The notes beneath the pieces are model-generated. The model was not told where the DNA came from, searched no databases, and worked only from the letters and a program-made list of their open reading frames with translations. From Bacteroidales bacterium (GTDB taxonomy: Bacteria > Bacteroidota > Bacteroidia > Bacteroidales > PUMT01), in NCBI GenBank assembly GCA_007134675.1, contig SLKJ01000030.1:1998-65997 (forward strand): 64,000 nucleotides of DNA, given 5' to 3'. The position numbers were made by a program, and so were the translations under genes. Positions 51,335 to 56,346 of the stretch are shown here, one piece after another (position 1 is the stretch's first letter; every line of letters starts with the position of its first letter).

Positions 51335-51613
51335 ATGGAAAAATTAATGCCCCTCGAACTTTTATCGAATATAAGGGGAGCGGGACCCTCGCCGGATGTA
51401 GGAAAGCTTTTTGATATTATAAAGGATGCTCTGCCCGGTAATGACAGTGCAGACCAGGAAGTGATAAGCGGTGATATCTGCGTTCATCTGGAAAGCCTGA
51501 GAGATGATGAGGTCATTGAAAGCAGCTCAGTGGAGAAGGAGATCATTAAAGAGAACTTCCCCGAAAGGAAAAACGATTATCTGGTTGTTTCAAGGGTTAT
51601 TGAGGAGGTATAG
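51335..51613 (+). CDS. gatC: Asp/Glu-tRNA amidotransferase subunit C (divergent)
   Basis: The C-terminal half LRDDEVIESSSVEKEIIKENFPERKNDYLVVSRVIE matches the GatC consensus (LR.D........e.l..nap....dgyf.VP.vi). The N-terminal half is atypical. I prefer the ATG at 51335 to the TTG at 51329. The stop abuts the gatA ATG. Confidence 0.65.
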   Translation: MEKLMPLELLSNIRGAGPSPDVGKLFDIIKDALPGNDSADQEVISGDICVHLESLRDDEVIESSSVEKEIIKENFPERKNDYLVVSRVIEEV

Positions 51614-53020
51614 ATGGATTCGGAGATATTAAAGATTCATGAGGCCTACAGAAAGGGCAGCCTTAACTGTTCCGGGCTTATTGCCTCAAGGATTGGCGAA
51701 CTGGAAAAGAGCAACCATAACTCGGTTAATTATATGCTGAGTGATTTGGCTATGGAGATGGCTGCCGAAGCGGATGACAGGATAAAAAGCGGCAAGGAGC
51801 TGAGACCCCTGGAAGGGATCCCGTTCGGCATAAAGGATGTGTACATGCTTCAGGGTACCAGCTCTTCAGGAAGTTCTGGTATACTGAAAAACTATAAAGC
51901 TCCCTATACAGCAACCGCAATCGTGAAGCTGCTTGATGCCGGGGCCATCCCGGTAGCCAGGGAAAACTGCGACTGCTTCGGACACGGAAGCAGCAATGAA
52001 AACAGCTATTTCGGACCTGCCAGGAATGCACTGGATAAAAATCTGGTTCCCGGAGGCTCCAGCGGGGGAAGTGCAGTGAATGTAGCCAGAGGTTTCACAA
52101 CATTTTCAATCGGAGGCGATACAGGCGGATCGATCAGGCAACCCTCAGGTTACAACAAGGTGTACGGATTAAAACCGACCTATGGAAGGATCTCCAGGTT
52201 TGGCCTGATGGCATATGCCTCATCAACCGATTGTGTGGGACCTATTTCTAGGAGCCTTGAGGATATAAGGCTTTTAATTAATATAATGAGTGGCAAGGAT
52301 TCCCGCGATCAGACAACTTTTAAATCAGATGCTATACCCGATGAAATTTTCAGAAATGACCCGGATTTAAAAAAGATAAGGATCGGATACTACAGGAATT
52401 TTATTGAGAGCGATAACCTGGATGAAAATATCAGGAATGATTTTATCAGGTTGATCGGTATCCTCAAAGAACAAGGCAATGCAGTCGAGGAGCTTGAATT
52501 CTACGATGACACTATACTGGTTTCGGCATATTATGTTCTTGCAATGGCAGAGACCGCTTCAAATCTGGCCCGACTTGACGGATCGGTCTACGGAGAAAGG
52601 GTTGCGGGTGAAAGTATAAGGGACCAGTATGCACTAACAAGGTCTGAGAACCTTACTGAGGAGACCAGGAAAAGGATAGTAGGTGGCAATCAGGTACTGG
52701 CTCACGGATATGCTGAAGATATATATCAAAAAGCAAGATATCTCAGAAAAATGATAACAGACAGCTTCAACAGGGATTTCAGGAACGTTGGCATCATCCT
52801 CTCACCTGTAACACCCAATACCCCGCCATTACTGGGCAGCAGCCTGAAGAATCCAATGGTCATGTATCTGTCCGATGCCTATACTGTAGGATTCAGTCTG
52901 GGCGGACTGCCTGCTTTAACCGCTCCGTTGGGGACTGATACGGGGGTACAGATAACGGCAGAGAAAAACGGAGAAGAGAGGATCCTGAAGTTTGCAAAAT
53001 ATTTAAAAGAGATTCTTTGA
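51614..53020 (+). CDS. gatA: Asp/Glu-tRNA amidotransferase subunit A (amidase signature family)
   Basis: GIPFGIKDV (catalytic Lys), GGSSGGSA and GGDTGGSIRQPS (Ser-cisSer), and GLKPTYGRISRFG. Confidence 0.85.
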   Translation: MDSEILKIHEAYRKGSLNCSGLIASRIGELEKSNHNSVNYMLSDLAMEMAAEADDRIKSGKELRPLEGIPFGIKDVYMLQGTSSSGSSGILKNYKAPYTATAIVKLLDAGAIPVARENCDCFGHGSSNENSYFGPARNALDKNLVPGGSSGGSAVNVARGFTTFSIGGDTGGSIRQPSGYNKVYGLKPTYGRISRFGLMAYASSTDCVGPISRSLEDIRLLINIMSGKDSRDQTTFKSDAIPDEIFRNDPDLKKIRIGYYRNFIESDNLDENIRNDFIRLIGILKEQGNAVEELEFYDDTILVSAYYVLAMAETASNLARLDGSVYGERVAGESIRDQYALTRSENLTEETRKRIVGGNQVLAHGYAEDIYQKARYLRKMITDSFNRDFRNVGIILSPVTPNTPPLLGSSLKNPMVMYLSDAYTVGFSLGGLPALTAPLGTDTGVQITAEKNGEERILKFAKYLKEIL

Positions 53021-56000: not shown

Positions 56001-56346
56001 GTATGATCTGATAATAAACGGTAACGAGATTGGAGGAGGGTCCGTTCGTGCCCATAAGCCTGAAATACTGGCGGCAACCTACCGTAACATGGGTTACAGT
56101 CATGAAGAGATGATTAAAAGTATAGGACATATGTACGAGGCTTTTCATTACGGAGCCCCTCCACATGGCGGAATTGCCTGGGGACTTGACAGACTGCTGA
56201 TGATACTTGAAAACAGATCTTCCATACGTGAAGTGATGGCATTTCCTAAAACAGGGTCAGGTGAAGACCTTCTTTTTAATTGCCCGTCTGAACTTTCCGA
56301 TAAAAAGATAATTGAGGCCAACATAAGGATCGTTGACCCGGGCTGA
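53017..56346 (+). CDS. gatB-aspS: Fusion protein: Asp/Glu-tRNA amidotransferase subunit B (aa 1-479), linker, then bacterial-type aspartyl-tRNA synthetase (aa ~518-1109)
   Basis: GatB part: [24 protein letters not shown] and the YqeY-like tail [12 protein letters not shown]. AspRS part: OB fold [32 protein letters not shown], motif 2 [18 protein letters not shown], GAD insertion domain, GGGSVRAH and [13 protein letters not shown]. It is one uninterrupted ORF. Its start overlaps the gatA stop (TGATG). Confidence 0.85.
   Translation: [1109 protein letters not shown]

Follow-up and report, generated by a model that had tools for sequence, protein, structure and literature searches.

The 64,000-nt stretch of contig SLKJ01000030.1 analysed here (assembly GCA_007134675.1, a Bacteroidales bacterium; hereafter the window) carries an operon in which gatC and gatA are followed by a gene that runs from gatB into aspS without interruption, so that the amidotransferase subunit GatB and an aspartyl-tRNA synthetase (AspRS) would be made as a single chain. 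We consider it probable that the product of this operon is an Asn-transamidosome complete in itself, with its AspRS covalently tethered, which serves the tRNA-dependent synthesis of asparagine. The physical association between AspRS and GatCAB is given by the gene itself, AspRS being covalently fused to GatB in one open reading frame (ORF), and the fusion presumably associates with GatA and GatC, since the operon is conserved. Among 24 genome loci harboring the fusion, gatC and gatA lie directly upstream and on the same strand in all 22 that have upstream DNA, and gatA is 58-65% identical across those loci. The loci come from Arcticibacterium, Polaribacter, Flavobacterium, Lutibacter, Algibacter, Aestuariibaculum, Mariniflexile, Gaetbulibacter, Wenyingzhuangia and Seonamhaeicola, besides a Bacteroidales metagenome-assembled genome (MAG); the fusion occurs in seven Polaribacter species genomes. 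The original prediction, made from the letters of the sequence, had proposed a 'hard-wired transamidosome', and this is still the best-supported reading of the locus, backed now by evidence that the fused AspRS is a second copy and that relatives control the operon through an attenuator.

The fusion gene lies on the forward strand of the window and extends from an ATG at 53020, or alternatively a TTG at 53017, to 56346. It is a single ORF encoding 1108 or 1109 aa, as the ORF list shows and as had been predicted, and the ATG is the likelier start because an identical database protein (P0001) is 1108 aa long. The GatB moiety (53020-54453, aa 1-478) is predicted to comprise cradle, helical and YqeY-like tail domains, and is joined by a flexible linker (54454-54570, aa ~479-517) to an AspRS moiety of the bacterial type (54571-56346), which has an OB anticodon-binding domain, a class II core with motifs 1-3 and a GAD domain, and ends at the stop codon. 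The five domains expected by the original prediction were all found, and in order, in the Pfam scan: GatB_N (18-300), GatB_Yqey (372-473), tRNA_anti-codon (536-600) and tRNA-synt_2 (639-1079), with GAD at 830-926. Likewise, the protein passes the NCBIfam models for each half, namely the GatB equivalog NF004012 (399.8 bits against a cut-off of 338) and TIGR00133 (356 against 314.8), and the bacterial AspRS models NF001750 (672.8 against 443) and TIGR00459 (606.5 against 373.9). The Pfam and NCBIfam results bear out the claim that a complete GatB precedes a complete bacterial AspRS, and the motifs quoted for both halves are present.

A search for homologues over 5.8 billion clustered proteins recovered the same full-length architecture in at least 120 protein clusters (63-100% identity, 1042-1127 aa, 94-100% query coverage), nearly all of which carry all five Pfam domains, one having no recorded GatB_Yqey match. 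The clusters derive from NCBI, JGI, ENA, Logan and Tara and include complete isolate genomes, and a protein identical to that of the window is encoded on an independent 6.8-kb ENA contig. The GatB-AspRS fusion is widespread in Bacteroidota, and the number of fusion-bearing species is a lower bound. It could have been argued that an indel introduced into the linker during sequencing or assembly had joined adjacent gatB and aspS genes, since the linker sequence is unconserved and since in Firmicutes aspS may stand beside gatCAB as a separate gene, as in locus L046 from a Clostridiales MAG. The probability of such an artefact is practically nil, however, given the unbroken architecture in so many independent clusters and the identical copy on another contig. 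In addition, the order in the fusion is gatB and then aspS, as opposed to aspS-...-gatA-gatB in L046, and the length of the linker is conserved: the span from the GxLVGKV tail motif to YRTH is held at 59-69 aa, with a median of 63 (n=96). We regard the artefact explanation as refuted. The linker, which the original prediction had put at about 38 aa, is indeed present; its sequence is free to vary, is rich in E, K, T, S and D, and shows no tblastn conservation beyond the identical copy. An AlphaFold2 model of the whole fusion, built from an alignment of 42 sequences, consists of two folded halves, GatB being folded over residues 1-477, connected by residues 478-517 at a predicted local distance difference test (pLDDT) value of ~24, and so describes the linker as a disordered tether.

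The fusion itself is no discovery. In the named clusters, NCBI calls the product 'bifunctional amidotransferase subunit GatB/aspartate--tRNA ligase AspS', and named carriers include Marinilabiliaceae, Jiulongibacter, Marinilongibacter, Urechidicola, Flavicella, Flavobacteriales, Cyclobacteriaceae and Spirosomataceae; those of the first five groups and others so labelled are 63-68% identical to the window protein. No paper describing a GatB-AspRS fusion was found in the literature searched, where the annotation label is the sole recognition of it. The original prediction had allowed that contiguous GatB-AspRS proteins might prove common and already described, and of this the first part has come true, together with an NCBI name, whereas a describing paper was not found; any claim of novelty for the fusion must be lowered to that extent. 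Similarly, the AspRS-GatC fusion model NF009460/PRK12820 shows that covalent links between AspRS and GatCAB had already been recognised by annotators, although the window protein scores 474 bits against that model's cut-off of 1379 and so is not that fusion.

In an HMMER search of representatives at 50% identity the Bacteroidota fusion family forms one cluster (P0121), and two further GatB-AspRS fusion clusters were found, P0122 (41% identity) and P0123 (36%). The P0122 type (cluster P0122/P0272) is encoded at L338:8001-11351, on a contig with 27% GC, as a fusion of the same subtype; its reading frame contains 46 in-frame TGA codons, 28 of which correspond to Gly in the alignment (21 to a Gly that is invariant), and therefore genetic code 25, of the Gracilibacteria/Absconditabacteria type, is indicated for it. 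Neither gatA nor gatC is present in the 8 kb upstream of this gene. The P0123 protein is WP_331655381.1 from Aminipila sp., a Firmicute, and has a canonical-looking GatB. Other AspRS fusions seen among the representatives (P0128, P0137 and P0166) are a HisRS-AspRS protein of 1029 aa from Bacillota and AspRS proteins of 744-748 aa with a C-terminal tRNA_edit (YbaK-like) domain.

Is the fused enzyme an additional AspRS, or the only one of the cell? As probes for canonical Bacteroidota aspS we used PDB 6WOM, which is Flavobacteriales-like by sequence, and P0211, which shares 64% identity with it. Canonical AspRS sequences from across Bacteroidota are 64-81% identical, whereas their identity with the fused moiety is just 37-39%. 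Seven assemblies contain both a canonical aspS and the fusion operon, four of them from culture-collection or type strains (Aestuariibaculum suncheonense SC17, Flavivirga aquimarina KCTC 52353, Aestuariivivens marinum MT3-5-12 and Tamlana sedimentorum JCM 19808) and the other three being an Aestuariibaculum MAG, a Polaribacter MAG and the 'uncultured' Polaribacter assembly YR2-5-5-J. The two AspRS moieties of A. suncheonense share 37.6% identity. In the genomes of these relatives the fused AspRS is a second, divergent and specialised AspRS. That the fusion would be a housekeeping protein, providing the cell's only AspRS and GatCAB, is very improbable. Such a role would suit an AspRS of the RDHG type, which is expected to charge both tRNAs, and would suit the published score of one aspS in every Bacteroidota genome, Polaribacter included (PMC4206432). 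Yet a full-length canonical AspRS, 84-100% identical to that of A. suncheonense and 74% to 6WOM, is found in 7/7 assemblies that could be checked for both genes, canonical aspS is conserved phylum-wide while the operon is patchily distributed, and an attenuator reading Asn codons would be an odd control for an essential AspRS. One 'Alloprevotella' contig (L070) was dropped as a source of a canonical aspS probe, its AspRS being Firmicute-like (50% to Bacillota). Three MAGs labelled 'Staphylococcus', 'Arenicella' and 'Acidimicrobiia' (L153, L239 and L319) harbor a Bacteroidota-type, mostly Flavobacteriaceae-type, aspS or the Asn attenuator described below; in all four cases the disagreement between taxon label and gene content probably reflects mis-binned contigs.

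With regard to the amidotransferase the situation is different. The original prediction had assumed that gatA, gatB and gatC are usually dispersed housekeeping genes in Bacteroidota and had suggested that the operon is a specialised extra set. This holds for the AspRS moiety but probably not for GatCAB, and published surveys disagree with the premise: GlnRS without gatCAB was recorded in 12 of 14 Bacteroidetes (PMC3927822 Table 1), and gatCAB was absent in 19 of 20 Flavobacteriales genera having GlnRS (PMC4206432 Table S1). Because surveyed Bacteroidota mostly have GlnRS and no gatCAB, the operon is probably the only GatCAB of its host and not an extra one. In the same Table S1 of PMC4206432, asnA or asnB is present and gatCAB absent in 17 such Flavobacteriales genera, and Weeksella and Blattabacterium lack all of these genes; the one member with gatCAB is Polaribacter MED152, which also has AsnRS and GlnRS and is scored 0/0 for asnA/asnB. 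The same combination of gatCAB without asnA/asnB is recorded for Pedobacter, Solitalea and Salinibacter (PMC4206432 Table S1). By these published surveys of related genera the host would keep, besides a canonical AspRS, also AsnRS and GlnRS, and the role of the operon would therefore be tRNA-dependent synthesis of Asn when free Asn is lacking.

The upstream region of the operon in relatives points in the same direction. In 11 of the 24 loci an Asn-rich leader ORF with 5-9 Asn codons is located 113-233 nt upstream of gatC, encoding peptides such as MTNNNNNNNFNNPNF, MTNNNNNNNFNNPNI and MRNNNNNNNFNNPNF. The Asn codons are exchanged synonymously between AAT and AAC while the frame and the FNNPN ending are retained, and a TAnnTTTG box is found 5′ of the leader ATG. 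Directly 3′ of the leader stop codon stands AGGAAGGTTRTTGTT, and then a strong terminator, AAAGCCTTCC-loop-GGAAGGCTTTTTTT, which formed in every single-sequence fold. RNAalifold gave an alternative pairing of GGAAGGTT with AGCCTTCC that is kept in 11/11 sequences, and as this antiterminator pairing uses an arm of the terminator, the two hairpins compete and are mutually exclusive. From these features we infer leader-peptide transcription attenuation: a ribosome stalled on the Asn codons would leave the antiterminator arm free and allow readthrough into the operon, whereas a ribosome reaching the leader stop codon would mask that arm and let the terminator form. The elements are located at L021:4197-4313, L004:4146-4258, L005:4210-4322, L007:4106-4223, L008:4093-4205, L009:3977-4094, L018:4218-4329, L019:4207-4320, L020:4136-4249, L022:4206-4318 and L024:4208-4320, with others in L164-L243. 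Their conserved core is present in 94 species genomes, practically every one of them labelled Flavobacteriaceae, and the gene that follows is gatC of the operon in 78/78 loci with enough downstream DNA. The attenuator thus appears to tie the operon to shortage of Asn-tRNA(Asn) in these Flavobacteriaceae relatives. No Rfam family matches it, the best sub-threshold matches, to the Thr leader (32 bits) and the Phe leader (30 bits), falling well short of the gathering score of 55, and no description of an Asn leader in Bacteroidota was found in the literature searched. In design it resembles the Thr_leader (RF00506), Phe_leader (RF01859) and Bacteroid-trp (RF01692) elements, in which a codon-enriched ORF is likewise followed by exclusive hairpins, but unlike these it would sense Asn codons, is restricted to Flavobacteriaceae and is dedicated to the gat operon. 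In Polaribacter sp. R77954 a Bacteroid-trp leader (RF01692, L020:3668-3785 on the minus strand, 53.4 bits against a gathering score of 49) lies ~350 nt from the Asn leader on the opposite strand, the two attenuators being arranged back to back.

For the window itself, no T-box or other Rfam family reached its gathering score upstream of the operon, nor did any upstream of L046. When the upstream regions of the window and of its 88% relative L162 are aligned, only ~35 nt before gatC are conserved. Within this stretch lies TAATTTG (51311-51317, forward strand), a putative −7 box of the Bacteroidota type, which we take to be a promoter box on account of the Bacteroidota TAnnTTTG consensus.

The genes for the amidotransferase are of a derived kind. 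GatC would be encoded at 51335-51613 on the forward strand (92 aa; an alternative start at 51329 in the ORF list gives 94 aa), and gatA, for the glutaminase subunit of the amidase-signature family (468 aa), at 51614-53020 on the same strand. As predicted, the gatC stop abuts the gatA start (TAG-ATG at 51611-51616). The overlap of the gatA stop with the fusion start (TGATG) is also present, though at 53018-53022 and not at 53016-53020, a slip of 2 nt. By domain and motif comparison the catalytic motifs are intact in all three operon proteins. As to the small first ORF, against Pfam GatC (PF02686) the window protein reaches 16.4 bits (E 0.011), below the gathering cut-off of 23, and an NCBIfam scan gave no match at E <= 0.01. 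Nevertheless, tblastn finds such an ORF directly 5′ of gatA in 22/22 loci at 44-59% identity, 11/11 tested family members match PF02686 below threshold over their C-terminal half (best E 1.2e-4), and in the PDB the family profile matches a single natural protein, Aquifex GatC (3H0L_C, E 0.004; the match covers 37 residues at the C-terminus). The family alignment has an invariant LR-D-V...NFP..K.G.LVV..IE pattern, and whereas the GatC motif resides in the C-terminal half, the N-terminal half is peculiar to the family. The ORF agrees with GatC in its size and position as well as in its C-terminal motif, and by its sequence it is a divergent GatC.

GatA scores 359 bits with Pfam Amidase and 411.8 bits with TIGR00132, which is below the cut-off of 481.1 but still by far the best family match, and its best PDB matches are all GatA (3H0L_A, 4WJ3_A and 3KFU_E). 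GIKD (with its Lys), GGSSGGS, GGDTGGSIRQPS, RRIVGG and YLSDAYT are kept in 24/24 GatA sequences, and the Ser-cisSer-Lys triad of the amidase signature is present; conserved Arg and Asp residues are presumably those that bind glutamine. A loop KENCD(S/C)FGHGSS, fixed across the family, replaces N-x-DEFAMGSS, while the operon-linked Firmicute GatA of L046 retains the canonical NMDEFAMG loop. The atypical N-terminal half of GatC and the divergent GatA loop, to which the original prediction had drawn attention, are thus both real, and both are fixed family signatures. In the GatB moiety GatB_N scores 304 bits and GatB_Yqey 42 bits, against 150 bits for the latter in the Aminipila fusion. The cradle aligns residue by residue to Aquifex 3H0L_B and Thermotoga 3AL0_B, EIKNLNSF is conserved, and the E-x-H metal site, HxEED, NRAG-PL-E and EIKN-NSF are invariant in the 42-sequence alignment. 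The operon proteins are functional-looking, judging from these alignments, but derived.

The divergence of GatA, of GatC and of the GatB tail might be taken to mean that the operon serves some other end, either as a Glu-tRNA(Gln) amidotransferase or as a supplier of Asp-tRNA or Asn-tRNA for non-ribosomal use in the envelope or in natural products; all bacterial GatCABs investigated to date accept Glu-tRNA(Gln) as well as Asp-tRNA(Asn) in vitro (PMC2330236). Only a small probability attaches to this, however, because the fused partner is AspRS and not GluRS, Bacteroidota with relatives of the operon have GlnRS (PMC3927822, PMC4206432), and the dedicated attenuator senses Asn codons specifically. 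Moreover, no other neighbouring gene, biosynthetic or envelope genes included, is conserved across these loci.

The AspRS moiety is the best-conserved part of the operon (65-68% identity, as compared to 58-65% for GatA and GatB), and scores ~455 bits with the AspRS1 of T. thermophilus, with 6WOM and with the non-discriminating AspRS of P. aeruginosa (4WJ3_M). Across 42 fused sequences there is no change in motifs 1-3 or in the arginines of motifs 2 and 3, in the flipping loop (DEGARE), at His967 or in the GGGS loop for Mg/ATP, and the family-invariant motifs include RDHG and GGGSVRAH. Two residues of the P. aeruginosa enzyme, H31 and G83, were reportedly tied to acceptance of tRNA(Asn) by Bernard et al. 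in 2006. At the position equivalent to H31, every fused AspRS has His, within RDHG, as compared to Leu in the discriminating enzymes of E. coli and T. thermophilus and Lys or Phe in canonical Bacteroidota AspRS. The RDHG His is also found in ~43 of the 56 closest standalone AspRS relatives, largely from phyla that, according to the literature, mostly use GatCAB. Taken with the G83 position (see below), these sequence features are suggestive, though not proof, of a non-discriminating enzyme. Outside the Bacteroidota fusion, the HNPFSMP/QAPQQ subtype occurs only in the L046 operon, where aspS accompanies gatA and gatB, and in the Aminipila fusion P0123, and because of this restricted distribution the subtype points to an AspRS lineage co-evolving with GatCAB. 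The sharing of HNPFSMP/QAPQQ between P0123 and the L046 AspRS hints, in addition, at the lineage from which the fused enzyme originated.

Several observations speak against the operon being a tethered Asn-transamidosome, and have to be weighed. At the position equivalent to G83 the fused AspRS has Asp, which is neither the Gly of non-discriminating nor the Lys of discriminating enzymes. Near the active site the family carries the invariant substitutions QSPQ->QAPQ, HHPF->HNPF and, in the motif-2 loop, LRA->SRG, and also VRAH in place of IRIH. The AlphaFold2 model has a predicted template modelling score (pTM) of 0.48 and shows neither inter-domain packing nor a defined GatB-AspRS interface; no rigid interface between the halves is described by it. 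The clade of the window is without the Asn attenuator, the covariance model being blank in the window, in L162, in the 73% relative L163 and in 13 other leader-less loci, and therefore the regulatory evidence applies to the window by homology only. Finally, several Cytophagales with GlnRS, AsnRS and GatCAB have at least one asnB (PMC4206432 Table S1), and the operon therefore need not always replace an Asn synthetase. The invariant changes at near-universal active-site motifs could also mean that the AspRS half has become an altered tRNA(Asn)-binding module, a scaffold, with aspartylation left to the canonical AspRS. We give this a slim chance, as the catalytic elements listed above are invariant across the 42 sequences, the moiety lies above the AspRS equivalog cut-off and no part of the operon is better conserved. 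Furthermore, canonical Bacteroidota AspRS is without the His of the non-discriminating type and would therefore be a poor candidate for charging tRNA(Asn). A tethered Asn-transamidosome with an active synthetase thus stays the probable reading.

No tRNA genes were found near the operon in the window or in the 22 loci. Two proteins consisting of a LytTR domain, without receiver or sensor domain, are encoded upstream, at 50026-50430 (134 aa) and 50687-51010 (107 aa), and the original prediction had taken such orphan regulators as a sign of a specialised gene set. This did not hold up: the LytTR genes are syntenic only in the 88% relative L162, where one gene is kept, and are absent from L163 and from the 24 genome loci. 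We have rejected them as a part of the system, the synteny being local and not conserved with the operon. Further upstream, the gene for an E1 dehydrogenase of 810 aa that combines E1_dh, Transket_pyr and Transketolase_C in a single chain (45438-47870) lies next to an NhaC-type antiporter gene (47902-49374, minus strand). The region downstream of the operon encodes a K+ channel, TrkA and TrkH (56464-60224) as well as a 1164-aa 4-alpha-glucanotransferase (60435-63929, minus strand). These E1, NhaC, Trk and glucanotransferase neighbours are an ordinary housekeeping context.

Among known systems, the closest in logic is the AspRS2 of T. thermophilus and D. radiodurans with GatCAB (Thermus transamidosome, PDB 3KFU), where, as is proposed for the fusion operon, a second AspRS works with GatCAB (PMC2330236, PMC4206432). 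In Thermus and Deinococcus the second, non-discriminating AspRS and GatCAB are the sole asparagine route despite the presence of AsnRS (PMC2330236), the hosts having AsnRS, GlnRS and a discriminating AspRS besides AspRS2. However, AspRS2 is archaeal-type, has no GAD domain, and is a separate polypeptide that binds GatCAB non-covalently via tRNA(Asn), whereas the window operon has a bacterial-type AspRS with GAD, fused to the GatB C-terminus, and divergent GatA and GatC. The transamidosome of P. aeruginosa (4WJ3) shares with the fused family a GAD-containing bacterial AspRS, GatCAB and the His31-type residue, and contains GatB and AspRS chains in a 1:1 ratio. In P. aeruginosa and H. pylori, on the other hand, the partner is the cell's only AspRS and is bound non-covalently, the H. 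pylori assembly being transient (PMC3367201); the fused family differs from P. aeruginosa in having a dedicated paralogue, a tether, Asp at the G83 position and the QAPQ, HNPF and SRG motifs. Compared with the transamidosome of Thermus, those of the bacterial type are described as dynamic and less stable (PMC3367201), and this instability would provide a rationale for a covalent tether. In the L046 operon (6010-10844) an AspRS linked to gatAB carries HNPFSMP, PQAPQQ and RDHG as in the fused enzymes, but the genes are separate and ordered aspS-...-gatA-gatB. Extra copies of AspRS and GatCAB, with tRNA-dependent Asn synthesis controlled by a T-box, are reported for C. acetobutylicum (in part in PMC4206432, citing its ref. 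18). The induction by uncharged tRNA(Asn) reported there would parallel the Asn leader, Bacteroidota using a leader-peptide attenuator instead.

Based on the above, one can propose how the system would work. GatC, GatA and the GatB half of the fusion would form a GatCAB amidotransferase, and the C-terminal half would be a second AspRS dedicated to it, non-discriminating or tRNA(Asn)-preferring, that aspartylates tRNA(Asn). The disordered tether of ~40 residues, conserved in length, would hold AspRS 1:1 beside GatB; Asp-tRNA(Asn) would then be phosphorylated with ATP and amidated by ammonia channelled from the glutaminase site of GatA, yielding Asn-tRNA(Asn). Because class II AspRS dimerises, the expected particle would be (GatC-GatA-GatB::AspRS)2. 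In many Flavobacteriaceae the operon would be switched on by ribosome stalling at the Asn codons of the leader. The best reading of its role is that of a back-up Asn route, a variant of the AspRS2 and GatCAB logic of Thermus and Deinococcus; we infer tRNA(Asn) specificity, channelling, oligomeric state and, for the genome of the window, the physiological role, whereas gene content, motifs, conservation and, in relatives, the second copy and the anatomy of the attenuator are observed. The proposed Asn-starvation-responsive route to Asn-tRNA(Asn), the specialised AspRS lineage and the Asn leader attenuator appear to be undescribed in the literature searched.

A bolder version of this proposal, to which we would give an even chance, is that the operon acts as an 'AsnRS in cis', in which an AspRS paralogue specialised for handing on tRNA(Asn), with altered acceptor-end and active-site motifs and a permanent tether to a co-evolved GatCAB, is a hidden source of Asn prototrophy in Bacteroidota without AsnA/AsnB, missed by surveys, is controlled in Flavobacteriaceae by an undescribed class of Asn attenuator, and also serves code-25 bacteria of the Gracilibacteria/Absconditabacteria type. 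Transamidosomes serve as the classic example of substrate channelling, in which a purposely mischarged tRNA is prevented from entering translation, and the bacterial-type complexes studied to date are short-lived and difficult to isolate; a GatB::AspRS fused at 1:1 and supplied with a GatA and GatC of its own would be a stable particle for studying the structure and kinetics of channelling. The Asn leader attenuator would offer a direct regulatory read-out of Asn-tRNA(Asn) levels. The finding also corrects earlier gene counts, in which each Bacteroidota genome was credited with one AspRS. The operon is a candidate explanation of how asparagine may be made without AsnA/AsnB in many marine and freshwater Bacteroidota, and so bears on auxotrophy predictions from their genomes.

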